A stretch of DNA of 64,000 bases from a bacterium (GTDB lineage: Bacteria; Patescibacteriota; Patescibacteriia; 2-12-FULL-60-25), in the NCBI GenBank assembly GCA_021796435.1, contig JAJYXM010000016.1, forward strand, positions 310,625-374,624. The letters are read 5' to 3'. The notes under the pieces are model-generated. The model had not been told where the DNA came from, made no database searches, and saw only the letters and a program-made list of their open reading frames with translations. Each line of letters starts with the position of its first letter. The first letter of the stretch is position 1. Below, piece by piece: positions 2,609-41,200 of the stretch. Both the position numbers and the translations under genes were made by a program.

Positions 2609-4171
2609 TCAAAAACCCTTAGGTTTCGCCCCGAGTGTGGAGGTCGTGGCGGCGGACATGTCTACGCGGATGTGTTTGGCGATGAGAGTGTGGGTCTCGT
2701 TCACCGTGCGCCAGACTTCTTGGGCGATGCGACGATATGACGGGTGTCCCTTGGAACCGGAGCGCAACTCGATGAAATGGAACAGTTCGCGCACGTTCCA
2801 GCTTACGATGAGGCGCCGGCGGAACGCCATGGGGATGGCGTATTCGGCTTCGACCTCGAGACCTGCTGCGACCAGCTGCTTGTGCAGCTCCTTGACTCGC
2901 GTCATGAGCGCATGGAAATCGTCAGCCAAGCCGATGTCCGTGATCTCTTGCGGCACGTCATAACCCAATTCCACGCCGAGCGTCTGGTTCAGGGGCGAGC
3001 AGATGCGGTGGCGCTGGATGTCGCGCCAGGCCCCGTAGTCGATGACGATCTCGTGGGTGAAGGTGGAGTCTTCGAAGGGGCGCGGAGCCGGATCGTGCGG
3101 GCCGCGATCGCGCAAAGCCGTGCTGATAACGCGGTCGATGATATCGAGCGAACCCTCGCCTTTGAGCGTTGAGAGGATCTCCGCGTATGGTCTGTCGCTG
3201 TAGCCGGCCAAGAGCGCAGCGGCGATGTGCAGCTCGGCGAACGGATCGTCAGCCAGCAGAACGACAGGATTCAGGTTATCCGCTACAGGTCCGGAGACCG
3301 GTACGTCCTGCAGGAGGTCGTTGGCCAGCTCGTGCAGCGTGTCAGGCAGCGAGGAGCGATATTCGTTCCGTCCCGCATACTTGAGCAGCGTGTGGATCGG
3401 CTTGGTCAGGATCGCGACTTCCGGATCGGCGTCCGGACCGCCGTGCAAAGCCTCGATGAGTTCGCGACCGACTTCGTGCGCTTCATCATGCGGACTCGAC
3501 ATGAGTTTTGTGATGATGGTCGCCCAGTTACGCGCATTAGCCGTCACGCCGAAGGAGGCCATGGCGGCCGAGGGCAAAAGATATCGTGCCACGTCGCAGG
3601 AACGTCCCTTGATCTGCGCGGCGTAGGCCCGGTCGGAAATGCCGGTCTCGTTGGGGAATTTTTCCCGCATGTATCCGTCCAAGCGACGCAGGGCTTCTTC
3701 GTACAGCGAATACAGGCCCTCGACCGTGCCGGTATAAGCGTGTCGTAGATGGCTAGCGGCGATCTTGGCCGGCGTGACGCAACGTACGGCGGAGAAGATC
3801 TGGTAGCGCGAACTCTTTTCGGTGAAAGAGCAGAGCCGGCAGTCCTCGATGATCTTGATGACGACCTGCGAGACGTTCTCGAGCGCGACGCTCGGCACGG
3901 CGTGTTCGGCGACCGAACCGTGGCCATAACCCACGACCCATTTCTCATGGAACTCGCTCGCTTTGGCTTCCGTCGCCTCGTAGACGTTCTGGTCAAAAGG
4001 CGTGTCGGTGCGCGAACATTTCGCCAAGGCTACGGCGATGACCTCTGGCGAGGGCGTCAAGAGGACGGTCGTACCGTCGTCGAGCTGGCGCTCCATACGG
4101 TTCAACCAATAGACCCGACGCTTGTTGGGATCCGCGGGCGGGACGAGTTTGGGTTTTGTGGTTTCTGGCAT
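2609..4171 (-). CDS. thyX: Flavin-dependent thymidylate synthase ThyX, tandem-fused (two ThyX-like domains in one 520-aa chain)
   Basis: N-domain GHGSVAEHAVPSVALENVSQVVIKIIEDCRLCSFTEKSSRY aligns to the ThyX GHETPFEH...RQWFRHRIASYNELSGRY region, but RHR is replaced by CRL. C-domain has an intact RDIQRHR motif and ELFHFIELRSGSKGHPSYRRIAQEV, which resembles the ThyX LR...EI...A region. Length is about twice a canonical ThyX. Confidence 0.6.
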   Translation of the reverse strand: MPETTKPKLVPPADPNKRRVYWLNRMERQLDDGTTVLLTPSPEVIAVALAKCSRTDTPFDQNVYEATEAKASEFHEKWVVGYGHGSVAEHAVPSVALENVSQVVIKIIEDCRLCSFTEKSSRYQIFSAVRCVTPAKIAASHLRHAYTGTVEGLYSLYEEALRRLDGYMREKFPNETGISDRAYAAQIKGRSCDVARYLLPSAAMASFGVTANARNWATIITKLMSSPHDEAHEVGRELIEALHGGPDADPEVAILTKPIHTLLKYAGRNEYRSSLPDTLHELANDLLQDVPVSGPVADNLNPVVLLADDPFAELHIAAALLAGYSDRPYAEILSTLKGEGSLDIIDRVISTALRDRGPHDPAPRPFEDSTFTHEIVIDYGAWRDIQRHRICSPLNQTLGVELGYDVPQEITDIGLADDFHALMTRVKELHKQLVAAGLEVEAEYAIPMAFRRRLIVSWNVRELFHFIELRSGSKGHPSYRRIAQEVWRTVNETHTLIAKHIRVDMSAATTSTLGAKPKGF

Positions 4172-7224: not shown

Positions 7225-7997
7225 CACCCCACCTCCATCAGGGCTTCGGCGATTTCGTCGACGATGCGTTCGGTGGCAGCGATCGGATCGGGATCGTCGG
7301 TGATCGGACGGCCGATGACCATCTTGTCGGCGCCGAGCCGGATGGCTTCGCTTGGCGTCAAGATGCGTTTCTGGTCGCCCTGGGCGCTTCCCTCGGGCCT
7401 CACGCCAGGGGTGATCTTGACGAGCTTCTCGAGTTCGGGGCGTTTGCCGATGATCTCGAGTTCCTGAGGCGAGCAGACGATGCCGGCGCAGCCAGCCAGC
7501 ACGGCGTTGCGCGCGAACTGAAGCACCTTGGCTTTGCTGGGCGCGTTGAAGGTCAGGTTGGCCTGCTCTTCGCTCAGGCTGGTCAGGACTGTCACGGCCA
7601 GAATGCCGCAGTCGGTATCCTTGCATGCCTTGACCGCCGCGATCATGCCGTCGATCTCGGCCGAGGCGTGGACGGTCAGATACTTGCTCTTCATGCGCGC
7701 CAGGTTGAGAGCTGCTCTGCCCATGGTGTTGGAGGTGTCGTGCAGCTTCCAGTCGTCCATGATCTTGCCGTTCAGCATCATGAACAGCGCTTTGTAAGCG
7801 CCGTGCAAGCCTGCCAGCTCGGCGCCATCCGTGAGGATGAAGTCCATGGCGATCGACGTCCAGAACTCGAGGCCGAGCTTGACCATGTCCACATGATCGA
7901 TCAAGGGCTGGACCAGGTCGAGCGCTTTTCCTGGATCGCTTACGTCGACGGCGAGGATGATGCGGCTTCGTGCAGTCTTCTTGATATCGGTCAGCAT
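7224..7997 (-). CDS. pyrF: Orotidine-5'-phosphate decarboxylase
   Basis: ILAVDV...VKLG...LHDT motifs of OMP decarboxylase; 257 aa. Confidence 0.85.
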   Translation of the reverse strand: MLTDIKKTARSRIILAVDVSDPGKALDLVQPLIDHVDMVKLGLEFWTSIAMDFILTDGAELAGLHGAYKALFMMLNGKIMDDWKLHDTSNTMGRAALNLARMKSKYLTVHASAEIDGMIAAVKACKDTDCGILAVTVLTSLSEEQANLTFNAPSKAKVLQFARNAVLAGCAGIVCSPQELEIIGKRPELEKLVKITPGVRPEGSAQGDQKRILTPSEAIRLGADKMVIGRPITDDPDPIAATERIVDEIAEALMEVG

Positions 7998-10758: not shown

Positions 10759-10931
10759 ATGATTCAGACCAGGTCCCGAGTCTTCGCTCGGGACGACAGA
10801 TGTTATATTTTGAGTGTAGGTTTGTCGTTTTAAAAAGCCCCTTCCCCAGGGCTAATGGCCAGAATATAGCAGCTTTATGTGGATTTGGCAAGTTTTGATG
10901 CAGAAGCGCGTCTAGGCTATTATGTGGCTAT

Positions 10932-11984
10932 ATGGAGGCCAAAAAACGTTCTTTAGCTATTTTAGGAGGCGCTCTGGGGATCCTGTGCGTAGTTTTCGCC
11001 TCACCGGCGAATGCTGCGGATTTTGACGTCAGCATGTCGTCGGATAACCTGTCTTTCGCGCCAGTTGATATCTTTGTGGGGACGCAGGCAAAAATCTACG
11101 CATCGGTCAGCAATAATGGGGATCAGGATGTCGAGGGCCAGGTCTATTTCTTCGACGGGACCACGCTCGTCGGCACTAAGCCGTTTTCGGCCAAAGCGCA
11201 TGGCAAGGCAGAAGACGTCTGGTTCTCGTGGCGACCGGAGACACAGGGTACGCATGACTTAGGATTCAAGGCCGTGAATGATCCCGGATTTCCGGAAGCG
11301 ACGCCGATGGACAATGCGGCTTTCGAGGACAAGTTCGTGGATCTTGATACCGACGGAGATGGCATAGGAAATGCGGTCGACCCGGATGACGATAACGACG
11401 GCGTGCCGGATAGCCAGGATCAGTTTCCATTGGATCCGTCGCGCTCGATCGATACCGACCATGACGGTCAGGACGATTCGATAGATTCGGATGACGATAA
11501 CGACGGCCTGTATGATTTCCAGGAGCAGGCGATGGGTACGGATCCGTTGAAATATGATACGGATGGCGATGGAGTAGGCGATAAGGAGGATGCCTTTCCG
11601 TTGGATCCGAAGAAGACGAAAGCCGAGACGCCAGCGGCAGAACCGGCAGAGGCCCCGGCTCCAGCACAAGGAGCTGTTCCTGTAGCGCAAGCCGCTGAGA
11701 TCGTGAATCAGCCGTCTGCGGTTGATGCGTCATTGGCTTATGCGAAAGCGCCGACTTCAGGGACCGTCGAAGAGGTGATCGCGACGGCGACAGAGCCAGC
11801 GACGCAGTTTCCGCAAATCACCGGTGCGGCATCAGATCAGCCGAAGCCCGTGGATGCATCGGCCAAGCTGACCAACAGCGGTTTTGCCGTGGACAATAAT
11901 CTGCTTGTGGTCGGATTGCTGGCGGCGGCAGGAGCTTCGTTGTCGGCAGGCGTGTTTTTCCTGATCAAACATTTCAGGGCGTGA
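10932..11984 (+). CDS. Secreted/anchored surface protein with CARDB-like N-domain and thrombospondin type-3-like Ca-binding repeats
   Basis: Signal peptide; repeated DTDGDG / DPDDDNDGVPD motifs; acidic composition; C-terminal hydrophobic anchor. Confidence 0.6.
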   Translation: MEAKKRSLAILGGALGILCVVFASPANAADFDVSMSSDNLSFAPVDIFVGTQAKIYASVSNNGDQDVEGQVYFFDGTTLVGTKPFSAKAHGKAEDVWFSWRPETQGTHDLGFKAVNDPGFPEATPMDNAAFEDKFVDLDTDGDGIGNAVDPDDDNDGVPDSQDQFPLDPSRSIDTDHDGQDDSIDSDDDNDGLYDFQEQAMGTDPLKYDTDGDGVGDKEDAFPLDPKKTKAETPAAEPAEAPAPAQGAVPVAQAAEIVNQPSAVDASLAYAKAPTSGTVEEVIATATEPATQFPQITGAASDQPKPVDASAKLTNSGFAVDNNLLVVGLLAAAGASLSAGVFFLIKHFRA

Positions 11985-12007
11985 AGCAGGACATTCAATA
12001 AACGAGC

Positions 12008-12040
12008 GATCCCTCGGCGAGGTGTGCCGAGGGATTCTGT
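12008..12040. terminator. Hairpin between convergent genes (10-bp stem atccctcggc/gccgagggat)
   Basis: Perfect inverted repeat followed by tctgttc. Confidence 0.4.
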
Positions 12041-12817
12041 TCAGAGGAGGTAGATCTTGTCGCGGTAGTTGTCGAGCTGCTGGTGCCAGAGGCGGAAGAG
12101 GCGTGGCTGGGCGGGCTCGACGACGTACTGCTCCGTGTTGCCTGGGGCGTAGGCGCTGTGCAACGGACTCGGTTGGAAGATGGAGGTCTTGCTCGAGAGC
12201 TCATGGATCGCTTGATTGCCACGAGCGAATTCGCGGAAGAGGTCGCCGATCTCGCGCAACCCGCCCAGGCCGAGGTCAGTCCACGAGATCACGACACGTC
12301 CGAGTTCGTTCGCCGCGATCCGCTTGGCGACGTCAGGCATGTCGGGTGAGAGTTCGACGAGAGCCTTGAACATGCGGAAGTTGGGTAGGTGGTCGCAGGG
12401 CGAAACGAGCGTACCCGAGGCGAGGGGTGTGCAGACGATGCCGCGCTTCGATTGGTCGACGACCAACTGGACCTTGAGTTCGATCTTCAGATCGAACGGA
12501 CCTTTGTCTCTTTCGGTCCGACTGAAATTCCAGTAGTTGCTGAGGGCGAAACCGTGCGGTGGTGGATCTTGAGGGTTCGTGTCGATGAGCGTGAAGACGT
12601 CGCAGTCGGGGCGCTCCTGACGCTTGATGCCGCGTTCTTCCAGCGCCTTGAGCTTGGCCTGGTCGAGTTCGAATGTGGCGAACGCCTTGGTGATGCTGCG
12701 TGTCTTGTCTTCTTGGCCGATCTCGAGTCCGATGAGAGCTGCGGCGCGCTGCATGAGCTCGCTCTGGGTCAGGATGTCTTGGCCGGGGATGAAATCTGGT
12801 TCCACTTGCTTGGGCAT
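12041..12817 (-). CDS. Hypothetical protein
   Basis: 258-aa ORF with no family recognised. Lies in a co-oriented block downstream of gyrB. Confidence 0.45.
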   Translation of the reverse strand: MPKQVEPDFIPGQDILTQSELMQRAAALIGLEIGQEDKTRSITKAFATFELDQAKLKALEERGIKRQERPDCDVFTLIDTNPQDPPPHGFALSNYWNFSRTERDKGPFDLKIELKVQLVVDQSKRGIVCTPLASGTLVSPCDHLPNFRMFKALVELSPDMPDVAKRIAANELGRVVISWTDLGLGGLREIGDLFREFARGNQAIHELSSKTSIFQPSPLHSAYAPGNTEQYVVEPAQPRLFRLWHQQLDNYRDKIYLL

Positions 12818-12946
12818 CGCGAATCCCTCCGTGTATGGGGAATGTACGGGGATATCTAAATACAGTGCGCGTAGGAGGTCAAATGGGTCAGGAGGGAAAG
12901 AAAAAGGCGGGCACTAGGCCCGCCATTCCAATTAAATTTTGATTCG

Positions 12947-15516
<2,570 letters not shown>

Positions 15517-15571
15517 TTATCCATGATTCGCTCAGACATTCCTCGCTGCAAAAACTCTTCTCATTCCGCTC

Positions 15572-17113
15572 TTGAAGGGAGGTGCAGAGACTTGTGTGGC
15601 TCGACTAAAAGATGTTGTGCGGCTAACTGCATTGCTTTATGATGGCCTTATGCAAGACTATTTTTCATCAGAAGAGGGGAAAAAGCTTTCATTGTCCCAT
15701 AAGGAGGTCAATGTCAGCGGATTCACCATCTCGGTCAATATCTGGGGTTGGATCAGTCCGTGGTTGGGGGCCGTCTGCAAAGTCGGTTCTTTCGGGACCA
15801 CGGCGAGCCTTTTCAGGGGCAATGACATGGATTTCTATATCGAGAGAGGCCGGTTGATCATGGCCCATAACGAGGTCTGTCGTCAGGCGGAAAGCGGTGA
15901 TTTGCCCTTGGACTCATCTATCGCTGAATCGCTTAAATTGGGCGAGAGCATCGTCTCTACGGTCCTTTCGAACCATGGAAAAGCGGAAGACCTGAAGCCA
16001 GAAGAGATGGTCGAAATAATCACTGCTTTGTTCGGGTATGCGCGCAAGCTCTGCTCTTTCGGTTACATCGCACCCTTGTCGGATTGGCCCGAGGAATACA
16101 TGACGCCACGCATCGATGCGATCATGCAGGCGAAATGCCCGAGCGACAGGGCGGCGACGCGCTTGTTGTTGACTAGTCCGACGATGGAAAAGTATTCCGA
16201 TATCGCCAGAATCGAACTGTGCCGAGCCGTGATGGGCGGCGAGGATCTTTCCGGATGGTTAAAGAAATGGTTTTGGTTAGACTTCGGCCACATCGGGAAA
16301 GTGCTGACGAAAGAAATGTTGCCAGAGAAATATCCTCAGATATTTCCCACAAAGGAAGAAGCGGAGATTGAGCTGAAAAGAATCCAATCGGCCGCAGCTG
16401 ATACCGCCAAGAGGCAGGATGAGCTATTCGTTGGATTGGGTCTCGACGAAAGCGAGAAGAATGTTTTCATCCTGGCACAGAAATTCGCATTCCTGAAAGG
16501 ATATCGTATGGAAGTGCTTTCTTGCGTCAATGCCTTTTTCGACGAAGTCTTTTCTTGCTATGCGAAAAAATTCGGTTGGGACAAAGACGTGTTCCGTTTC
16601 TCTACGCTAGATGAAGTCTGCGGCTATCTGGTAGGCGGCCATACGGACCAAGATGTTGTCCTTAAAAGAAAGAATGACTCAATCTGGATATTAGATAATG
16701 AGGAGGATGGCTTGATCATCCTGCAAGGTGAAGACGCGGAAAGATTCAGGAAAAACCGTCTGTTGGTCGAAGTCGAGGCCATGAAGTCGGATTTGATCAA
16801 AGGGAATACGGCTTTTCCGGGTGTCGTGAAGGGCAAGGTCAAGATCGTGATTAACGCGTCAGATCTGAATAAGGTCGAGGACGGAGATGTCCTGGTCGCC
16901 GTGCAGACTACGCCGGAATTGTTGCCTGGAATGAAGAAAGCGGCGGCTTTCGTGACGGATATAGGAGGCATCACTTCGCATGCCGCTATCGTATCCCGTG
17001 AGTTGAAGAAGCCTTGCGTCGTAGGAACGAAGAATGCGACCAAAGTGTTGAAGGACGGCGATACGGTCAAAGTCGATGCCGACCACGGCTACATCTTGTT
17101 GCAGGAAAGCTGA
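15572..17113 (+). CDS. PEP-utilising-enzyme mobile (phosphohistidine) domain protein lacking an ATP-grasp domain
   Basis: C-terminal GGITSHAAIVSRELKKPCVVG motif, homologous to the central domain of the ppsA at 59058. N-terminal 350 aa unassigned. Confidence 0.6.
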   Translation: MKGGAETCVARLKDVVRLTALLYDGLMQDYFSSEEGKKLSLSHKEVNVSGFTISVNIWGWISPWLGAVCKVGSFGTTASLFRGNDMDFYIERGRLIMAHNEVCRQAESGDLPLDSSIAESLKLGESIVSTVLSNHGKAEDLKPEEMVEIITALFGYARKLCSFGYIAPLSDWPEEYMTPRIDAIMQAKCPSDRAATRLLLTSPTMEKYSDIARIELCRAVMGGEDLSGWLKKWFWLDFGHIGKVLTKEMLPEKYPQIFPTKEEAEIELKRIQSAAADTAKRQDELFVGLGLDESEKNVFILAQKFAFLKGYRMEVLSCVNAFFDEVFSCYAKKFGWDKDVFRFSTLDEVCGYLVGGHTDQDVVLKRKNDSIWILDNEEDGLIILQGEDAERFRKNRLLVEVEAMKSDLIKGNTAFPGVVKGKVKIVINASDLNKVEDGDVLVAVQTTPELLPGMKKAAAFVTDIGGITSHAAIVSRELKKPCVVGTKNATKVLKDGDTVKVDADHGYILLQES

Positions 17114-17149
17114 CCGAAGGTATCGCACAGGGCCGCGGCGTGATAAACT

Positions 17150-18043
17150 ATGGCCAATATGGCAACCGAAGAAGTACCGATTGGCGGTTTTACCCAGGGC
17201 GAGCTGCAGATGGCGTCTTGGTGGGTGCGTAATCATCTGATGCTGCGCAAACTTGGTTATGGGACGCTGATCGGTCTGGCGGTGTTGCTGTGGGGCTATT
17301 CTTTGTGGGGAGTGTTGGATGCTTATGCGATCTCTTATCCTCGCGAATCAAGGATCACGCACGACATAGCGGTCAACCAGCAACTTTTGGCTGCTTTGGA
17401 GCAGGATATGCCGCAGGGCATCTCTTTGTCCGACGTCACCGTGCTGCAGACGACGGATAACCGATTCGACATGGAAGTCGAGGCGACGAATCCTAACGGG
17501 CAGTGGTGGGCGGAATTCGATTACCGTTTCAACCTTTCGGGAGAAGAGACCCCGTTGAGGCGCGGCTATGTCTTACCAGGCAGCTCGCAGCATCTGACGG
17601 AGTTGGGCTATAAACCGGAGACACGAGGGGGCAAATCCGCGGCCTTGGAAGTCGAGAATATGCACTGGCATCGTCTGGACAGGACGATGGTCCCGGGCGA
17701 TTACCAGGATTTCGCGGCGCAACGCCTCAAACTGAACTTCAACAACATCAGTTATCTACCGGACATTGCGTTGGGGACGAAGAAAGTCGGGGAGACTAAT
17801 TTCGAGCTTGAGAATGCCGGTGCTTATGGTTTCTGGGGTGTCGATCTTTTCATCCGTCTATATCGGGGGACATCGGTCATCGGTCTGCAGCAGATCAGAG
17901 CCACCAACCTATCACCAGGCGAGAAGCGCGATATGCAAGTGATTTGGCCGGAAAGTCCACCTGGCGTGACCAAGACGGAGATAATCCCGCAAGTGAATCT
18001 ATTGGATCCGTCCGTCTTTTTGCCGACGGAATACTTTAAGTAG
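17150..18043 (+). CDS. Hypothetical membrane-anchored protein
   Basis: ORF with one N-terminal TM segment (LIGLAVLLWGYSLWGVL). Confidence 0.4.
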   Translation: MANMATEEVPIGGFTQGELQMASWWVRNHLMLRKLGYGTLIGLAVLLWGYSLWGVLDAYAISYPRESRITHDIAVNQQLLAALEQDMPQGISLSDVTVLQTTDNRFDMEVEATNPNGQWWAEFDYRFNLSGEETPLRRGYVLPGSSQHLTELGYKPETRGGKSAALEVENMHWHRLDRTMVPGDYQDFAAQRLKLNFNNISYLPDIALGTKKVGETNFELENAGAYGFWGVDLFIRLYRGTSVIGLQQIRATNLSPGEKRDMQVIWPESPPGVTKTEIIPQVNLLDPSVFLPTEYFK

Positions 18044-18074
18044 TCAGTGAGTCGATAAGTAAGTGTGTTAGGAT

Positions 18075-18758
18075 TCAGTTTACGTAAGCTTCCATGATTG
18101 TCATTTGGCCATTTGGGTTGAGTTGATGTGTCAATTCAGGAAATTTTTTTCCTGATTGGATGGCATTGGCTAGATAATCAAGCGAGGACATACCGGGATA
18201 GGGAAGCAAGTTGTAGTTCGTGCTATTGTAAGATAAACCGCAAATTAATATCGGCAGTTCGTTTAGGATGTATTGCGCTGCCTGGTTTGTAGTGACCCCG
18301 TCGATCGGGGGTTGGTTTTCGTTGACGATAGAATCAATAATCGAGTGGAAAGTTGAGTTGTGGACGTAGTATCGATTAACGGCTTTGATTTTTTCCAGCA
18401 ACTTTTTGTCCAGAGCTTCATCCCAGCGGATTACGGTGATCCGTTTAAGATTTTTTGAAGGAAATTTATTGATGATTTTATAGATAGAACTGTTTAGGTC
18501 GGTGCCTTTGCGCAACGCAACATTGAGTGCACGAGCAGTCGAATACCCGTTGCGGTAGTGATAATTCAAGGCATGCAGACGGTCAGGAATCAGAATAAGG
18601 ATCCTGCCACAAGTGTATGCCAGTGCCCATTCTAAATAGCATAAGATGTTCTCAAGAGTGAAATATCTGTTTCCCAGGCTTATGCCGATGAGGATATTTT
18701 TTTCGTTAAGGTTTTGCGTTTGATTGAGTATCTTGCAGATGCGCATATTGGAAGCCAT
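18075..18758 (-). CDS. tRNA-dependent cyclodipeptide synthase (CDPS)
   Basis: ILIGISLGNRYFT matches the CDPS catalytic-Ser motif (AlbC ALIGISAGNSYFS, YvmC VLVGISPFNSRFS). QYILNELPIL matches the Y-x-L-x-E-x-P catalytic Tyr/Glu motif. A PYP triplet lies near the C-terminus. 227 aa. The gene sits in a distinctly AT-rich segment. Confidence 0.75.
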   Translation of the reverse strand: MASNMRICKILNQTQNLNEKNILIGISLGNRYFTLENILCYLEWALAYTCGRILILIPDRLHALNYHYRNGYSTARALNVALRKGTDLNSSIYKIINKFPSKNLKRITVIRWDEALDKKLLEKIKAVNRYYVHNSTFHSIIDSIVNENQPPIDGVTTNQAAQYILNELPILICGLSYNSTNYNLLPYPGMSSLDYLANAIQSGKKFPELTHQLNPNGQMTIMEAYVN

Positions 18759-18860
18759 TGTCTTCTGTTGTATGTTAGGAGTACTTGATCTGAAAGTCTA
18801 TAGGATTGATACGTCGGTGCCGACTACCAGCTTTTTGACCGATGTGGCAAGCTGTGGGAC

Positions 18861-19964
18861 ATGGATAGGTGGCTGAAAGTCTTTTCGCGTTACGATTGGC
18901 CTCTGATGTTCACGTCTTTGATGCTCGTGGTCATCGGTTTTTTGTCTATCTACGGCATCAACCTTTCGCAGGCGACGGATTTTTTCCAATTCAAGAAACA
19001 GCTCCTGGCCGTCGGACTGGGGCTCGTCGCCATGGTCGCCATCTCTTATCTCGACTATCGCCATATCATGATGTCGGGTTGGCTGATTTATATCGTCGGT
19101 TTCATCCTGCTCATCTTGGCGCTTGTCGTCGGCAAGAGCGCGCATGGCGGAGGTCGCTGGTTCGTCTTGGGATCGTTGTCGTTCCAGCCGGTGGAATTGG
19201 CGAAGGTCACGATGGCGATTTTTTTAGCTTCTTATTTTTCACGTCACTCACACAAGAGACTGACTTGGATTATTTTTATCGGTAGCGTCTTGGCCTTGTT
19301 GGGCTATCTGATTCCGGTATTGCTGCAGCCGGATTTCGGTTCGGGCATGGTGCTGCTTGCCATCTGGGGCGCGACGGTCGTGTTCTGCGGTTTGCCGAGG
19401 CGAGCTTGGTGGATCCTGCTCATCATCGCGGCGCTAAGCTCGACGTTGCTGTGGAATTTCGGCCTGAAGCCGTATCAGCGCGATAGGCTGATGTCATTCG
19501 TGAACCCGGCGGCTGATCCGCTGGGTGCGGCGTATAACGTGACTCAAGCCAGGATCGCCATCGGTTCCGGAGGATTCTTCGGTAAGGGCATCGGAGAAGG
19601 TTCGCAGGCGCGTCTACGCTTCCTGCCTGAAGCGTCGACTGACTTCATGTTCGCAGTGGTCGGGGAGGAACTTGGTTTCCTTGGACTGTTTTTGGTGCTC
19701 GGACTTTTCGGTTATGTCATGTGGCGGATATTGAGGATAGGGATGCAGAGCTCGGATGCATTCGGCGGTATCCTGGCGGTCGCATTCTGCGCTTTCATCT
19801 CGTTCCATCTGTTGGTCAATGCAGGAATGAATCTGGGATTGATGCCAGTGACCGGAATACCTTTGCCGTTTCTTTCCGCGGCGGCTTCGTCCATCGTGAT
19901 AATGTTCGTCGTCATCGGGTCGGTGCAGTCGGTTGCGGTACATGGACGAAAAAGCGGGGCGTGA
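18861..19964 (+). CDS. ftsW: SEDS-family peptidoglycan glycosyltransferase FtsW/RodA
   Basis: Ten-TM SEDS architecture with conserved GFLGLFLVLGLF and PLPFLS regions. Confidence 0.85.
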   Translation: MDRWLKVFSRYDWPLMFTSLMLVVIGFLSIYGINLSQATDFFQFKKQLLAVGLGLVAMVAISYLDYRHIMMSGWLIYIVGFILLILALVVGKSAHGGGRWFVLGSLSFQPVELAKVTMAIFLASYFSRHSHKRLTWIIFIGSVLALLGYLIPVLLQPDFGSGMVLLAIWGATVVFCGLPRRAWWILLIIAALSSTLLWNFGLKPYQRDRLMSFVNPAADPLGAAYNVTQARIAIGSGGFFGKGIGEGSQARLRFLPEASTDFMFAVVGEELGFLGLFLVLGLFGYVMWRILRIGMQSSDAFGGILAVAFCAFISFHLLVNAGMNLGLMPVTGIPLPFLSAAASSIVIMFVVIGSVQSVAVHGRKSGA

Positions 19965-20076
19965 ATCCAGCTGGCATGTTTCAGCCGCTGCGGGGCGGAC
20001 ACATCCTCGCGACGGAACTTCTCATCGGATACATCGGGAAGTGGAAAGAAAATTGATGGTGAGGTAGGATTGATGA

Positions 20077-20415
20077 ATGGATAATTTGAGCCCAAACAAG
20101 ATCGTCGGACACTGCCCGTTATGCCAAGCGGCTTATGACCAATCGGTCGTGAGATTGTTGGGGCAGAGCGGATCAGCCCGCCTGTTCCATTGCACATGCC
20201 AATCATGCGGACATGCCGTTTTGGCCGTCGTCGTAGAGTCTTTGGGCGCGGTGAGTTCGGTCGGTATGTTGACGGATCTGGAGGCTGGCGACGCCTTACG
20301 TTTCAGCTCGCGTGAGCCGGTTTCGGCCGATGAGTGTCTGGCTATCCATTCAGCTTTAGGCAAAAGCCGTGAATTTTGCGCATTATTGCTTGACAAGAAA
20401 GCGGGTATAAAGTAA
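20077..20415 (+). CDS. Hypothetical small zinc-ribbon protein (CxxC ... CxxC)
   Basis: CPLCQ ... CQSCGH motif pair. Confidence 0.35.
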   Translation: MDNLSPNKIVGHCPLCQAAYDQSVVRLLGQSGSARLFHCTCQSCGHAVLAVVVESLGAVSSVGMLTDLEAGDALRFSSREPVSADECLAIHSALGKSREFCALLLDKKAGIK

Positions 20416-20455
20416 GCTTCGGCCACCATTTTACTTGTCCCAAGAACCAAAGAAT

Positions 20456-21133
20456 ATGCCATATTCACTGACAGCAAGCACACGCAACGCGACAGGAAGG
20501 CGTGCAAAGACGCTATTAGCCGACGGAAAGGTCCCGGCGGTCATGTACGGACACGGTTCCGAGGCTTCGAATTTGGAGCTGAATGCCGGAGAGTTCCGCC
20601 GCATCCTCAAGACAGCAGGTACTTCGTCTTTGATCGACCTCGAACTTGAAGGCAAGCCGTTGCAGAAAGTTTTGATAAAGGACGTGCAGGTAGAGCCGAT
20701 AACCATGGAACCTGTGCACGTGGATCTGTATCAGATCCGCATGGACGAAGAGCTCGAAGTCGAGGTGCCGATCAAACTGGTCGGAGAATCCCCGGCGGTC
20801 AAAGGCCTGGGCGGTACGTTGGTCCAGAGCTTGGACGAAGTCACGGTCAAATGTCTTCCGGGCGATCTGCCGCATGAGATCGAGATAAACTTGGATAAGC
20901 TGGTCACTTTCGAGGATTCCATCGCCGTCAGCGATATCGTGGTCCCGAAGGGCGTAACCATTATGGATGATCCCAACGGCACCATCGCGACGGTCGAAGC
21001 TCCGTTGACCGAGGAACAGCAGAAGAAACTTGAAGAAGGCGAGACGGCCGACGTCAGCGCAATCAAGACCGAAGCCGAAGAGAAGAAGGCTGCGGAGGAA
21101 GCTAAGGCAGCTGAAGAAGCAAAAACCGAATAA
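20456..21133 (+). CDS. rplY: 50S ribosomal protein L25 / general stress protein Ctc
   Basis: L25/Ctc beta-barrel N-domain plus an acidic/Ala-Lys C-terminal tail. Start taken at MPYSL. Confidence 0.85.
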   Translation: MPYSLTASTRNATGRRAKTLLADGKVPAVMYGHGSEASNLELNAGEFRRILKTAGTSSLIDLELEGKPLQKVLIKDVQVEPITMEPVHVDLYQIRMDEELEVEVPIKLVGESPAVKGLGGTLVQSLDEVTVKCLPGDLPHEIEINLDKLVTFEDSIAVSDIVVPKGVTIMDDPNGTIATVEAPLTEEQQKKLEEGETADVSAIKTEAEEKKAAEEAKAAEEAKTE

Positions 21134-29135: not shown

Positions 29136-29217
29136 GTTCCGGACGTTTAGCTTCACCCTGCGCAAAAGCTACGGGTGACAGGACGCCGAACGTAATCAGT
29201 TCAGGACGTTTAGCTCA
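29136..29217 (+). repeat. Duplicated tRNA-Val 5' end with flank (gttcCggacgtttagctTca at 29136-29155 versus gttcAggacgtttagctca at 29199-29217)
   Basis: About 19/20-nt direct repeat; the upstream copy is not followed by the rest of a tRNA. Confidence 0.6.
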
Positions 29218-29280
29218 GTTGGTTAGAGCGTTCGATTCACATTCGAAAGGTCGCAGGTTCGAATCCTGCAACGTCCACCA
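29204..29280 (+). tRNA. tRNA-Val (anticodon CAC), CCA encoded
   Basis: Hand-folded cloverleaf: acceptor ggacgtt/aacgtcc, D-stem gctc/gagc, anticodon stem ttcga/tcgaa with loop ttCACat, T-stem gcagg/cctgc with T-loop ttcgaat, then a-cca. Confidence 0.9.
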
Positions 29281-36336: not shown

Positions 36337-38214
36337 ATGCAAAAAAATAGAGCGTTCCTCTTTTCATTTTTGAAAACTGCCACCGGACGGGTGCTGTTTT
36401 TCGCCCTCATAAGCGCCGTGGTCGTGACTCTCTTGCCGGTAGAAATCAGGGCACAGACTGACGTCGGGGTCAATAACGTCCAGCAGGTAGCGAATACGGC
36501 CGGCTTGGCTGGAGGGTCGGATTTGATAACCATCATCGGGAGGATAATCAACATCTTCTTAGGCTTCTTAGGGTTGGTGTTCTTGGTGTTGATGCTTTAC
36601 GCCGGATTCACCTGGATGACCGCGGCGGGTGATGCGGATAAGATCAAGAAAGCGCAGGGGACCATCCGTAATGCGATCATCGGTCTGGTCATCATAGCTT
36701 CGGCTTGGGCGATAACATCGTTCATCCTCGGCATTTTCGCAGGACAGGGTTTGGGCGGCATCGGTGGTGGAGGACCTAGCGGGCCGTTGGCGCCATTCTC
36801 TTCAGCGCCAGGTTCGGCTTGCTTGGGCAAGGGGATAATCGAGACGCATCTGCCGGACAGGAACTCTACCGGTATACCGAGGAATTCGCCGATTATCATA
36901 ACGTTCAAGGAGCCGATGAAGCCTGACACGATAATGAAGGGGTGGACGGATGCCACGAGCAATACCCAGATGGAATGGCCCTTGGAGGATAAGAACGTGC
37001 TCATCTATCGGACGGTGCAGGGTCAGGATGCGGCCATGGGATCGGACCAGATAAAGGTCAGATATACCAAGGATCTGAAGACGTTCGTCTTCAAACCGGC
37101 TGATTATTTGGGGAGCCCGACCGAGAAGATCGGCTATACCGTAGTTTTAAAAGGAAGCAAGAACGGTATCCTGAAGGCAGACGGTTCTCCTGCTCTGACT
37201 TGTTCACCGAACAATGAATATTCCTGGCAATTCGAGGTGTCGACAGTGCTTGATCTCACTCCGCCTTATGTGACTGCGGTCATCCCGCCGGCTGAAGGAC
37301 TATACGCGAGGAATATCATAGTGATGTTGAATTTCAATAAAGCCATGGATCCGACCGCGTCACAGGGTACGACGGCTGACGGTTTCCAGAATATCGAGAT
37401 TTTGGCTACGCCTAACGGGCAGACTGTAGGCATCCCGGTAACCGGAGAATTCAAGATCGTCAACCAGTACAGGACAGTCGAATTCGTGAGCGACGCGAAG
37501 TGCGGAACGAATTCATGCGGACGCGACGTCTATTGTTTGCCGGGCAATGCACAGATCCAAGTCAACGCCAAAGCTGGGACGTTGGATGGTCCAGGGCCGC
37601 AAGCCGTATTCACGACCAATGGTTATGACGGCTTGGTAAGCGTCGTCGGGAATTCTTTGGATGGCGACCACAACGACAAGGCGGAAGGTCCGCCGGGAGA
37701 TAATTATCAGTGGTCTTTCGGAACCTCGAATGACATCAAGCTATCACCGCCGGTGATCGTCAGCACGACGCCTGATTCAGACCCGAATACCGGTAAGAAT
37801 TCCAACGTATCATTGGACATGCCGATAACGGCGCTTTTCGATTCTTTCCTTCAGGCATCTACATTGAATTCGGATAACGTATACGTGGATGCCCATGGGA
37901 CTACCGAGCAACCGGATACTTTCTGGTGGACCGTCGGCATGAAGCTGGTCAAGAACGACGGGTCGGACATCGATACTACGACCGTACCGCCGGAAAAGCC
38001 GGAAGTCAGCGCGCTGACCATAGATCATCGGCCGTTCCAGCCGTCAGGAGTATTCCCGAACCTGAATTATTATGATCCATACATCACTTCCGGGGTGCAG
38101 GACGCTTATCAGAACTGTTTCGTACCGGCACGAAAATGCGGTGCAGGGAGCGGCGCCAATTGTTGCAAATTCCAACCCAACTCTGAAGTGTGCAAGAAAA
38201 TATTAAATCCATGA
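36337..38214 (+). CDS. Surface protein with signal peptide + TrbC/VirB2-pilin-like double-TM N-module, Gly linker and Ig-like domains
   Basis: The N-terminal 140 aa are about 55% identical to the N-terminus of the next gene. Hydrophobic helices IINIFLGFLGLVFLVLMLYAGFTWMTAAGD and NAIIGLVIIASAWAIT. TGA overlaps the ATG of the next gene (ATGA). Confidence 0.7.
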   Translation: MQKNRAFLFSFLKTATGRVLFFALISAVVVTLLPVEIRAQTDVGVNNVQQVANTAGLAGGSDLITIIGRIINIFLGFLGLVFLVLMLYAGFTWMTAAGDADKIKKAQGTIRNAIIGLVIIASAWAITSFILGIFAGQGLGGIGGGGPSGPLAPFSSAPGSACLGKGIIETHLPDRNSTGIPRNSPIIITFKEPMKPDTIMKGWTDATSNTQMEWPLEDKNVLIYRTVQGQDAAMGSDQIKVRYTKDLKTFVFKPADYLGSPTEKIGYTVVLKGSKNGILKADGSPALTCSPNNEYSWQFEVSTVLDLTPPYVTAVIPPAEGLYARNIIVMLNFNKAMDPTASQGTTADGFQNIEILATPNGQTVGIPVTGEFKIVNQYRTVEFVSDAKCGTNSCGRDVYCLPGNAQIQVNAKAGTLDGPGPQAVFTTNGYDGLVSVVGNSLDGDHNDKAEGPPGDNYQWSFGTSNDIKLSPPVIVSTTPDSDPNTGKNSNVSLDMPITALFDSFLQASTLNSDNVYVDAHGTTEQPDTFWWTVGMKLVKNDGSDIDTTTVPPEKPEVSALTIDHRPFQPSGVFPNLNYYDPYITSGVQDAYQNCFVPARKCGAGSGANCCKFQPNSEVCKKILNP

Positions 38215-41200
38215 AGGTACGTAACATTTTCGCCATAGCGTCTATCGGACTCGGCCTGGCGGCGGGTACGATGTTTCTGTCGGCCCACGCCGTACGAGCA
38301 CAGGTCGATACGGGGTTGCAGCAGGTGGGGCAGACGGTGAAGCTTTCAGGGACTGACCCGCGCACTATAGCCGCGAACATCATCAATATCGCGTTGGGCT
38401 TGGTGGGTATCGTGCTCGTCGGTCTGATACTTTACGGTGGCTTCCTGTACATGACGTCGGCCGGTGACAGCGCCAAAGTGGATAAAGCCAGGAAAGTCAT
38501 CACCAACGCCATAATCGGTCTGGTCATAGTGTTGTCGGCTTGGGCCATCACCAGATACGTAATAGATAAGTTGTTGCAGGCGACGCAGGAAGGCGGAGGC
38601 GTCGGTGGAGGTGCTAGCTCTGGTTATGTCGGAGGGTTCGGCAGCGGAACGGGCGGCAGCAGCTTCAGGATAGTCTCGATCACTCCGCAAGGCAGCCAGC
38701 CTGGGAAGCCAAGGAATACCGTAGTCAAGATCCTTTTGACCAAGGCCGTGGATGAAGCGACAGCTTCTGCCGTTACCGTGGTCAAAGATGGCGGTACGAC
38801 CGTCGGAGGCACTATTGCGGTTCAAGGGACGCTTGTGACGTTTACGCCGGTACAAGCCTGTCCTTCGCCGAACGAAACACGTAAATGTTTCGACGCCGAT
38901 TCGGCCTTTACGATTAAAGTCGGGACAAGCCTGAAATCAGCTCAAGGACAGCCGATCGCTTGCGGCGGTTTTGCACCAGCATGCGAAGCGCATTTCACTA
39001 CAGGCAATCTGGTCGACGTTTCGGGCCCGAACGTGTCTTTGACCTTCCCGACGGACGGCATGTCGATCCAGCAGAATTATTATTCGGATGTCTTGGCTCA
39101 TGCGACAGACGATAGCGGCGTCGCAATCGTGCAATTTTTGGATGGCGCCGATGAGATCGGCAGCGACGGACCGAGTTCGGCGGATACGCCACTAAGTTTC
39201 GATGCCAAGATTTTTTGGGATACGGCTGGAGCTGCTTTAGGCGTGCATACCTTGACCGCAAAGGCGTTGGATTTGGATACGAACACGACGCAAAGCCAGA
39301 GCGTTTCGGTCGTCGTACGCCCGGAACATTGTTTCAACGGTAAACAGGATCAGGATGAGACTGGCATAGACTGTGGTGGTGATCCGAACAGCACGGATTT
39401 CTGTGGCGTATGCAGCGGTGGTTCGTGTACCAGTAATAGCCAATGTTCTTCGGGTTTTTGCCAAGGCGGGGTGTGTATCGAGAAGCCTGTGATCAAGTCA
39501 GTTTCTCCGTTGAACGGCAAGCCGGGTACTTTCGTCTCCATCGCGGGTACTAATTTCGGAACTAATCCGGGTACGGTCGTTTTCTTAGGTGACCCGAACA
39601 ATCCAGCCGACGATAAAATCGCAGTCGCGCCACAAGCCTGTGTCAATGCAGGAAGCCAAACATGGAGCAATACGCAGGCGATAGTTTCTTTGCCGGACGG
39701 TGCAGCTTCAGGGCCGATAGAAATCAAGAATGCTTCCAGCTCGTTGACCGACAGGACGGATCAAGATCCTGGGCCGGCAGTCGCAGATTTCGTCGTGGAT
39801 AATACGGAACATCCTGGGCTTTGTGCTTTGGATCCAGCGTCCGATAGCGTTGGCAAAAACGTGAAAGCTATAGGACAGGGTTTTGGAAATTCGCAGGGCA
39901 AGGTCATATTCGGTTCCCTGGACCAGCAACTGGCGGGATCACCGTGGTCTGACGCTAACGTCACATTCAAGGTTCCGGTCGTCAACAACGGGCCGTATCA
40001 GGTCTGGGTCCAGACAGGCGCAGGCACAAGTAATCCGGCACAGTTCGTGGTGACGGAAAAGAGCCTCGAAGCGGCTCCTGAATTGGATAGCCTCGATCCG
40101 ACGCAAGGCCCATTGCAGCAATATGTGACGCTGTATGGCAGGAATTTCGGATATAACGTAGGAACGGTGATTTTTTCCGCACAGGATGGTACCGAGGCGA
40201 TCGGTGACACGAGTTTTCCGGCTGCTTGCAGCGCAGGTTTCTGGTTGGATGACACGATCGTAGTCAAAGTCCCTTCGGTCTTCAAGAACGGTCAGGGATT
40301 GATCGACGGCACCTATCAGGTCAGGGTAAAACGTTCCGATAATAAGGAATCGGCCTCGTTGCCTTTCAATGTCAATAAATCCTTACCTCTCAAGCCAGGT
40401 ATCTGTGCCATCAGTCCCGCAGTCGGACCCGTGGGAACGGACGTGAAGATCTACGGTGAACGTTTCGGCTTCGACAAACCGTTGGTGTCTTTCAGCACGA
40501 GCAAGCAGGCTTTGGTGCAATCCAATACGAACCAGGAGGTGCAGACTTCGGTCCCGAATAATTCGATCACCGGTCCGGTGACGGTCACGAGCAATGCCGT
40601 CATCTCTAATGGTTTCAATTTCCAGGTCAGGAATTGCAATGAAGCCCCTGAAATCTGCGGACCGGTCGATAAGTTCCAATGTTGCCAGACTGGGGAGTGT
40701 CGACCAGCGGGACAGTCTTGCGCCGTTGCACCGACCGAATCCGAATATGCCTGGCAACTTTCCACAGGACTGATTCCGTTGGCGCCATACGTCATCGAAG
40801 AATGCCGTCCGGACATCACTCCAGCGCCGACTCCTTCACCATCTCCATGGAGTGGTAGAGCTGGTGGGGACCAGGCGCCGACCGATGCGGCGATAACGAT
40901 GCGTTTTTCGCAGCAGCTCGAAATGAGCACGGTCACCAAACAAGCTTTCCATATATACGCCTGCAAAGGCGCCTCGGCCGATCCTTGCGATACGAAGGAA
41001 GCAATCCAGGATTTCACCATGCACTTGACCCACGAGAACAATCAGCAGGATTTGGTGACGTTGAATCCGAGCGCGAAGTTCGCGACCAATACCACATATC
41101 TGGTGACCATCTCGACAGACATAAAGGGCGCAGGCGAGACAGGGGCCAACATGATCGAGAACAAGGCCTGCGGCAAAGGCCAGAACAATGAGACTTATGG

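Follow-up and report, generated by a model that had tools for sequence, protein, structure and literature searches.

A gene with the hallmarks of a tRNA-dependent cyclodipeptide synthase (CDPS) stands by itself in a low-GC islet beside a gene of the FtsW/RodA family, in a 64-kb stretch of patescibacterial DNA that is referred to below, in its entirety, as the window. The locus raises the question of whether this gene encodes a working enzyme, how it came to lie where it does and what it might make. The reading favored here, with a probability of about 0.73, is that the encoded protein is a predicted catalytically competent tRNA-dependent CDPS, that its gene was gained as a single-gene insertion of ~800 bp, and that the enzyme accepts a first substrate other than histidine and makes a product that is likely unmodified. 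The gene is a further member of a known enzyme family and does not represent a new kind of system; since the CDPS family is well studied and one CPR member has already been characterized, the gene itself is unsurprising.

Identity and fold of the encoded protein

The CDPS gene occupies positions 18075..18758 on the minus strand and encodes 227 aa from the ATG at 18758. An alternative start at M5 (ATG at 18746) would give 223 aa, in agreement with the N-termini of homologues and with the database entry P0001, and judging from these sequences the shorter form is the likelier product. The original prediction had named the hallmark motifs of the family in the 227-aa product, and all of them are found in this open reading frame, as G25-I-S27-L-G-N30-R-Y-F33, Y163-I-L-N-E167-L-P169 and P186-Y187-P188.

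The assignment to the CDPS family, made at first without database searches, is borne out by profiles, by sequence matches in the Protein Data Bank (PDB) and by structure prediction. The protein passes both curated profile cut-offs, with 36.9 bits for Pfam PF16715 (CDPS; cut-off 27) and 61.8 bits for NCBIfam TIGR04539 (tRNA-dependent cyclodipeptide synthase; cut-off 45); the NCBIfam cyclodityrosine synthase model gives 15 bits, with a cut-off of 300. The sole strong sequence matches in the PDB are ParcuCDPS in its wild-type and mutant forms, with E-values from 1e-23 to 3e-22 over residues 16-217. An AlphaFold2 model, built from an input of 13 sequences, has a pLDDT of 89.6 and a pTM of 0.87, and all 50 of the 50 PDB matches listed by Foldseek are CDPSs, sharing the Rossmann-type CDPS fold. 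TM-scores are 0.73-0.80 for ParcuCDPS (7QA*/7QB8), 0.75-0.82 for the CDPS of Streptomyces sapporonensis, 0.63-0.72 for YvmC, 0.60-0.64 for AlbC and ~0.7 for Rv2275. The expectation that the protein would align with AlbC and YvmC over its whole length thus holds at the level of the fold (TM 0.60-0.70, 17-20% identity) but not at the level of sequence, where AlbC is matched over 27 residues at E=0.25 and the PDB sequence search returned no match to YvmC. The window gene encodes a true CDPS, which belongs to the XYP subfamily and to a ParcuCDPS-like clade.

Catalytic residues and subfamily

In ParcuCDPS the active site consists of S26, Y167, E171 and Y191, together with D58, which hydrogen-bonds to the catalytic Ser and is needed for activity (PMC7613923); the equivalence of these residues to the AlbC numbering is given in the same work (PMC7613923). 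A phmmer alignment places S26, D58, Y167, E171 and Y191 of ParcuCDPS opposite S27, D59, Y163, E167 and Y187 of the window CDPS, with P188 next. The catalytic Ser, Tyr and Glu, along with the cyclization Tyr, are thus intact on proper alignment, a point on which the original prediction might have failed. All of the codons concerned are on the minus strand. Ser27, within GISLGN, is encoded at 18678..18680 and corresponds to AlbC S37; Asp59, the equivalent of ParcuCDPS D58 in the Ser/Asp dyad, is encoded at 18582..18584; the codons at 18258..18272 specify Y163-I-L-N-E167, whose first and last residues are the catalytic Tyr and Glu (AlbC Y178 and E182); and the Y187-P188 codons (AlbC Y202-P203) are at 18195..18200.

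Conservation extends beyond the active site. A MAFFT alignment of 46 sequences has the signature S-N-D-Y-E-Y-P in the window CDPS and in nearly all clade members, and the D59 column is invariant in a smaller alignment (13 of 13 sequences) and occupied by Asp in 45 of the 46. Twelve homologues agree completely in 33 columns; the window CDPS keeps 30 of these, and its changes in the remaining three are conservative. Given the intact reading frame and the retention of both clade-invariant and catalytic residues, the gene looks like that of an intact enzyme under constraint.

The subfamily had been called from an apparent PYP triplet. The call itself stands, because Y187 is followed by P188 and the nearest solved relative, ParcuCDPS, was classed as XYP by its authors (PMC7613923). 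The reasoning from the triplet does not, because the letters XYP stand for X40, Y202 and P203 in AlbC numbering, as opposed to N40, Y202 and H203 in the NYH subfamily (PMC7613923), so that the X of the name is not the residue preceding the Tyr but AlbC position 40, which is N30 here (N29 in ParcuCDPS). By sequence and by structure, the nearest characterized enzyme is the XYP-type ParcuCDPS; a neighbor-joining (NJ) tree, which is rough, covers members of the clade only.

The insertion site

The CDPS gene is contained in a low-GC insert of 800 bp at 18043..18842, which comprises the open reading frame, 32 bp past its stop codon and ~84 bp before its start. To its left, at 17150..18043 on the plus strand, lies a gene for a conserved 297-aa protein with no Pfam hit, which is found directly upstream of ftsW in related genomes. 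To its right is the FtsW/RodA family gene, at 18861..19964 on the plus strand; the divergent orientation of the CDPS gene and ftsW that had been described is therefore as stated, with 102 bp between the two.

The same junction can be followed in three relatives. The closest is a sister genome (GCA_031082005.1, locus L042), in which FtsW is 93% identical and the flanks are 79-83% identical in DNA. Its gene order is GyrB, a 294-aa gene, FtsW, a 112-aa gene, L25, DUF3048 and MurA, and the CDPS is absent. By blastn, L042 7056-7958 corresponds to window 17139-18042 and L042 7983-10318 to window 18843-21132, so that 24 bp in the sister (7959-7982) stand in the place of the 800-bp insert; other gene-level indels between the two genomes occur in the same region. 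In two more distant relatives (L043/L044 and L045/L046, with FtsW 67% and 65% identical), a 293- or 324-aa orthologue of the left flanking protein is followed directly by ftsW, again with no CDPS. Orthologues of the 297-aa protein in the three relatives are 86%, 62.5% and 61% identical, and searches of their loci revealed no remnant of either the CDPS gene or the inserted DNA. The relatives recognized by FtsW are labelled either Patescibacteria group or Candidatus Uhrbacteria.

Because three relatives lack the gene at this site, parsimony indicates that it was gained in the window lineage after the split from the lineage of L042. Horizontal acquisition, which was originally proposed from composition, is best demonstrated by this synteny, and the deviating composition is in agreement with it. 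Gain of the CDPS as a single-gene insertion of ~800 bp between the 297-aa gene and ftsW is thus supported, and as an instance of horizontal gain it is unusually clean, involving one gene in a reduced CPR genome and boundaries known at the level of individual bases.

The insert contains one gene, and no integrase, transposase, tRNA target, clear target-site duplication or terminal repeats were found in it or next to it. An Rfam scan of the window detected a single tRNA, 10 kb from the insert, and no RNA features in or near the insert itself. A candidate direct repeat of 11 nt was considered, with a left copy (GTGTGTTAGGA) at 18063..18073 on the plus strand, 2 bp beyond the CDPS stop codon, and a right copy (GTATGTTAGGA) at 18770..18780 on the plus strand, 12 bp upstream of the first ATG. 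The copies are imperfect, matching at 10 of 11 positions, and of marginal significance (a match as good arises in 78 of 5000 shuffles of the two flanks), although the motif does not occur elsewhere in the window. Its interpretation as a target-site duplication was rejected, since the motif is missing from the empty site in L042 and the homologue loci have no such repeat. A chimeric assembly was also rejected as the cause of the islet, since an identical locus is present in a second assembly (Logan contig L041), which possibly derives from the same reads.

Base composition

The islet had been judged to be ~40% GC between flanks in the high 50s. The low value is confirmed, with 41.6% for the segment 18060-18800 and 42.1% for the open reading frame, but the flanking genes, at 53.9% and 54.2%, are in the mid-50s and close to the window mean of 54.1%. 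The open reading frame is the lowest-GC stretch of 684 bp in the 64 kb, and 0.19% of sliding windows are as low. Windowed GC and codon-usage calculations, which had been proposed as a check, agree: among the 40 window genes, the CDPS gene is lowest in GC (z -4.4), in GC1 and in GC3 (50%, z -2.6; host mean 66%).

Much of this deficit is a property of the protein. If the CDPS is recoded with host codon preferences, its expected GC is 46.6% (z -3.6 relative to host genes), and amino-acid composition thereby accounts for ~8 of the 12.5 missing GC points, or about two thirds of the deficit. The synonymous-site deficit that is left, -4.4 points, is the most negative among the 40 genes (z -2.0). Low GC is also characteristic of the clade, since in all 40 homologue loci from Genome Taxonomy Database (GTDB) representative genomes the CDPS is lower in GC than its flanks, by a mean of 8 points, and the gap widens to between -19 and -22 points in high-GC hosts, including Halomonas salifodinae. 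Because most of the deficit is amino-acid composition and low GC is clade-wide, the GC argument is by itself only suggestive. The GC3 of 50%, lying between a clade mean of ~28% and the host mean of 66%, fits a gene that came from an AT-rich donor and has since been partly ameliorated, and is similarly suggestive.

Homologues and the ParcuCDPS-like clade

The best matches to the window CDPS among 5.8 billion proteins, other than itself, are 36-42% identical. When 1.84 billion representatives were scanned exhaustively with HMMER, 257 clusters were recovered at E<=1e-3, of which 22 are at E<=1e-30. The genomes that carry homologues belong to Patescibacteria (Paceibacterota, Saccharibacteria, Gracilibacteria and others) and to DPANN archaea (Woesearchaeota and Nanoarchaeota), with a few odd metagenome-assembled genomes and one Halomonas in addition. 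The window CDPS is on a long branch in the rough NJ tree of the clade, and no donor was found, the best non-self match being 42% identical.

No neighboring gene is conserved over 40 homologue loci, the largest neighbor family being present in four of them. A SET-domain gene is adjacent or fused to the CDPS gene in six of the 40 loci, and a GNAT acetyltransferase gene is adjacent in four. Fusions are also seen among the representatives, including CDPS-SET proteins (P0016, P0022 and P0089), CDPS-class I methyltransferase proteins (P0112, P0129 and P0140) and a PRTase-CDPS protein (P0117); P0016 is, at 40% identity, the best non-self match of the window CDPS in the HMMER scan of the representatives. 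Literature searches on CDPSs in Patescibacteria, CPR or DPANN and on CDPS-SET fusions returned nothing relevant beyond the ParcuCDPS papers. The window gene points to an uncharacterized clade that numbers ~250 sequence clusters in Patescibacteria and DPANN and in which partners of the SET, GNAT and methyltransferase kinds occur.

A broader reading of this distribution may be entertained, doubtful as it is. It may be that the clade around ParcuCDPS acts as a mobile, one-gene "accessory metabolite" module that ultra-small episymbionts in the two domains (Patescibacteria and DPANN archaea) have repeatedly exchanged, that in part of the clade this module is coupled to SET-domain or GNAT partners, and that its cyclodipeptides mediate interactions with hosts or competitors. 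If so, the window would hold one freshly caught transfer event with its exact boundaries, and charged tRNAs would be turned into cyclodipeptides in organisms that have hardly any other biosynthetic ability. A signalling or antagonism role for the product of the window CDPS, as suggested in the original prediction, is speculation.

Predicted substrate specificity and mechanism

Gondry et al. describe pocket P1 by eight positions, which in AlbC are 33-35-65-67-119-185-186-200 (PMC5816076). In a MAFFT alignment, these positions read LGLPWILL in the window CDPS and GAYAWELY in ParcuCDPS, and the mapping is validated by the exact return of the published ParcuCDPS motif. The residues that mutagenesis identified as selecting His in ParcuCDPS are absent from the P1 triad here, with Y55, E174 and Y189 replaced by L56, I170 and L185. 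Combining Y55V, E174L and Y189L in ParcuCDPS abolishes the use of His, and cyclo(Leu-Pro) and cyclo(Phe-Pro) are made instead (PMC7613923). Elsewhere in the family, Pro is accepted in P1 by enzymes with the motif LGLPWLFF, Phe/Ile by those with LGLPWFLF and Leu by those with LGFPWLVF (PMC5816076), and a motif of the form xGLPW-hydrophobic-LL is present in nine other clade members. With Leu, Ile and Leu at the His-selecting positions, the enzyme is predicted to take as its first substrate not His but a hydrophobic or prolyl residue (one of Leu, Pro, Phe, Ile and Met), with the proviso that the CDPS specificity code is degenerate and its motifs are unreliable across subfamilies (PMC5816076). It is thus probable, from the pocket residues, that the window CDPS does not use histidine. 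In the P2 region, a deletion of four residues relative to ParcuCDPS prevents the mapping of a P2 motif.

In the established scheme for CDPSs, the aminoacyl group of a first aminoacyl-tRNA occupies P1 and is transferred to the Ser, that of a second one enters P2 and a dipeptidyl-enzyme is formed, and cyclization then sets the diketopiperazine free (PMC5816076). All of the residues that this requires are present by alignment in the window CDPS, and we infer that the family mechanism carries over. The aminoacyl group of the first aminoacyl-tRNA would be accommodated in P1 and transferred onto Ser27, polarized by Asp59. A second aminoacyl-tRNA, with its group in P2, would then give the dipeptidyl-enzyme, assisted by Tyr163 and Glu167, after which Tyr187 would aid intramolecular cyclization and a 2,5-diketopiperazine would be released.

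Gene neighborhood and expression signals

Apart from the CDPS gene, the window holds housekeeping or cell-surface genes that are typical of Patescibacteria. These include genes for Tmk, ThyX, L1, L11, NusG, GyrB, L25, DUF3048, MurA, PrmC, signal peptidase and HisRS, as well as FtsA, FtsZ, NrdR, HtrA, PK, PPDK and giant proteins with pilin domains. That no tailoring genes are adjacent, as noted at the outset, is confirmed by Pfam scans of 39 other open reading frames across the 64-kb window, among which there is no oxidase, P450 or dedicated methyltransferase, nor any 2-OG oxygenase or prenyltransferase adjacent to the CDPS gene, and by the single-gene nature of the insert. The only methyltransferase of the window is PrmC, which is 8 kb off and syntenic in relatives that have no CDPS. 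A combined tblastn and HMM search of the window likewise found no SET, GNAT or methyltransferase partners. Because no tailoring enzyme is encoded in the insert or in the scanned reading frames, the CDPS most likely yields a cyclodipeptide that is left unmodified, a statement for which 64 kb of a ~1.52-Mb genome were scanned.

A scan for promoters and terminators gave nothing interpretable for the CDPS gene or for ftsW, and neither a sigma-70-type promoter nor a clear Shine-Dalgarno sequence was recognized upstream of the CDPS gene. To our knowledge, promoters are poorly described in Patescibacteria, so that such a scan is weak evidence. In the relatives, the gene for the 294-aa protein and ftsW are co-oriented and 41-254 bp apart (41 bp in the sister genome), as compared with 817 bp here. 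Since the CDPS gene now lies between this co-oriented pair on the opposite strand, we infer that ftsW either needs a promoter of its own in 18759-18860 or is reached by read-through transcription antisense to the CDPS gene. Such antisense read-through is possible.

Alternative explanations

The history of the site could be reversed, with a CDPS that was ancestral there and has been deleted in the relatives, and with a low GC that reflects nothing beyond the amino-acid composition of the family. Other gene-level indels do separate the window from L042, the CDPS is lower in GC than its flanks in 40 of 40 homologue loci (mean -8 points), and the make-up of the protein would by itself, at host codon preferences, bring the gene down to 46.6% GC. 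Loss would nevertheless demand at least two independent clean deletions, as the same junction is empty, with no remnant found, in three relatives that represent two phylogenetic depths (FtsW 93% and 65-67% identical). Nor does it explain why synonymous-site GC is the most deviant of 40 genes, and the clade is scattered over two domains with no close relative of the window gene; ancestral presence is the least probable of the alternatives considered here. If gain is accepted, the insert might still be a silent or decaying passenger, with a reading frame that looks intact while being unexpressed or no longer functional. The gene is present in a single lineage, it lies in antisense orientation inside what is, in the relatives, probably a co-transcribed pair of genes, and no promoter-like site or Shine-Dalgarno sequence was recognized, although the last of these observations is weakened by how poorly the promoters of the phylum are described. 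Against decay, however, stand the full-length frame and the retention of all catalytic residues and of 30 of the 33 clade-invariant ones, and a GC3 of 50%, set against ~28% in the clade and 66% in the host, suggests a residence long enough for partial amelioration, during which the frame was not disrupted. A silent passenger is therefore considered unlikely.

The protein might also have the CDPS fold and yet release no free cyclodipeptide, transferring aminoacyl or dipeptidyl groups to another acceptor, or it might work with a distant partner such as a SET-domain or GNAT protein. In 10 of the 40 homologue loci the CDPS gene is next to, or fused with, one for a SET-domain or GNAT protein, CDPS-SET and CDPS-methyltransferase fusions exist among the representatives, and a partner could be encoded outside the 64 kb of the genome in view. 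However, ParcuCDPS, which is of the same clade and has the same catalytic signature, makes cyclodipeptides alone, the cyclization residue Tyr187 is conserved, and the insert is one gene with no partner in the window. Such a function is held to be very unlikely, a little less so than ancestral presence at the site. The preferred reading remains that of a horizontally gained CDPS that is predicted to be competent.

Comparison with characterized CDPSs

The closest known enzyme is ParcuCDPS (CDPS 90, from Parcubacteria bacterium RAAC4_OD1_1; PDB 7QB8), which is the best sequence match, with 29% identity over 202 columns, and is also taken as the best structural match (TM 0.73-0.80). The two share the XYP signature, the Ser/Asp dyad (D58 there, D59 here) and a host phylum. 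ParcuCDPS makes cyclo(His-Pro) and cyclo(His-Glu) by itself, both in E. coli and in vitro (PMC5816076; PMC7613923). Beyond the P1 replacements, Y193, T195 and R196 in the P2 region of ParcuCDPS are G189, S191 and S192 in the window CDPS, which also has the deletion of four residues in the P2 helix. Given these differences in P1 and P2, a different product is expected.

The NYH-type enzymes are more distant. AlbC, from the albonoursin pathway of Streptomyces noursei, has the same fold, and it shares the Ser/Tyr/Glu/Tyr set by transitive alignment through ParcuCDPS. However, it is only ~20% identical, has His at position 203 where Pro is found here, and is clustered with the AlbA/AlbB cyclodipeptide oxidase, whereas the window CDPS has no tailoring gene. 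YvmC of Bacillus, which makes cyclo(Leu-Leu) for pulcherriminic acid, and Rv2275 of M. tuberculosis, which makes cyclo(Tyr-Tyr) for mycocyclosin, also have the same fold (TM 0.68-0.71 for the two) and the same tRNA-dependent chemistry. Both are NYH enzymes that are paired with a P450 (CypX and CYP121, respectively), and the window CDPS differs from them in having no P450 neighbor.

The likeness that bears most directly on specificity is to the engineered ParcuCDPS Y55V/E174L/Y189L (Sutherland et al. 2022). These variants are laboratory constructs on a scaffold of 29% identity, and the rest of the P1 pocket (G22, A24 and A57) differs as well. Nevertheless, they are aliphatic at all three positions, as L56, I170 and L185 are naturally in the window CDPS. 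An enzyme with a natural aliphatic P1 pocket at the same three positions that were engineered in ParcuCDPS thus provides a ready test of that specificity model.

Base composition and surroundings of the CDPS gene

In all 40 loci with cyclodipeptide synthase (CDPS) homologues drawn from GTDB representative genomes (L001-L040), the GC content of the CDPS match is lower than that of its flanks. The difference averages -8 points over the 40 loci; the values for L013 and L036 are -20 and -19, and that for L032, from Halomonas salifodinae, is -22. Such a pattern fits a clade that has been transferred repeatedly out of AT-rich donors, and amino-acid composition is part of its cause.

The two copies of an imperfect 11-nt direct repeat (18063-18073 and 18770-18780, 10/11 identical) flank the window CDPS ORF on both sides, and no further copies occur elsewhere in the 64-kb window. 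The significance of the repeat is marginal, as it is equalled in 78 of 5000 shuffles, and no copy is present at the empty site of L042, the matching locus of the sister genome GCA_031082005.1. A single RNA gene was detected across the 64-kb window, a tRNA-Val(CAC) at 29204-29280 (+), which lies 10 kb away from the CDPS insert and has no apparent link with it.

Gene gains, losses and other genes of the window

Whole-gene indels are common in the region compared between the window and L042. The gene for a 513-aa protein (15572-17113, +), within the block 15476-17138, is missing in its entirety from L042, where GyrB is followed by approximately 200 bp and then by the 294-aa gene, the orthologue of the window 297-aa gene. 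At 50.1%, its GC content is the third-lowest among the 40 window genes, and this lineage may have gained it as a second gene of its own, next to the CDPS. The sole Pfam match of its product is a C-terminal PEP-utilising mobile domain, the N-terminal 430 aa having no Pfam match. Also without a counterpart in L042 is a 2.4-kb block (10894-13367), in which 10932-11984 encodes a protein with CARDB/TSP3 repeats and 12041-12817 is an ORF of 258 aa. The reverse case is a 377-aa gene located behind MurA in L042 (13023-14221) and missing from the window.

The GyrB ORF (13369-15513, -) is 714 aa long when counted from its first ATG, as compared with 683-684 aa in relatives, and the true start is thus probably about 30 codons further downstream. 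The ThyX ORF (2609-4171, -), at 520 aa, is about twice the usual length, and two stretches of it match the Thy1 profile; it may represent a tandem duplication or fusion of ThyX. Two proteins encoded in tandem, of 625 aa (36337-38214, +) and 3549 aa (38190-48839, +), each begin with a domain resembling T4SS pilin at the N-terminus, behind which come Ig-like domains (Big_5, TIG and Big_7).

Partners of the CDPS homologues

In six of the 40 loci, a SET-domain gene directly adjoins the CDPS gene or is fused to it in frame (L002, 10647-11132; L005, 3744-4247; L006, 10654-11064; L007, 2658-3137; L021, 3188-3682; L034, 1938-2897). A full-text literature search found no paper describing this pairing. 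Three of the representative cluster proteins related to the window CDPS (P0016, P0022 and P0089) are CDPS-SET fusions, and P0016 is the top non-self match of the window protein. A GNAT acetyltransferase gene is immediately next to the CDPS gene in four further cases among the 40 (L001, 8732-9196; L017, 9540-10001; L022, 10627-11181; L025, 3855-4334). Other representatives are fusions of CDPS with a class I SAM methyltransferase (P0112, P0129 and P0140) or, in P0117, a phosphoribosyltransferase-CDPS fusion.
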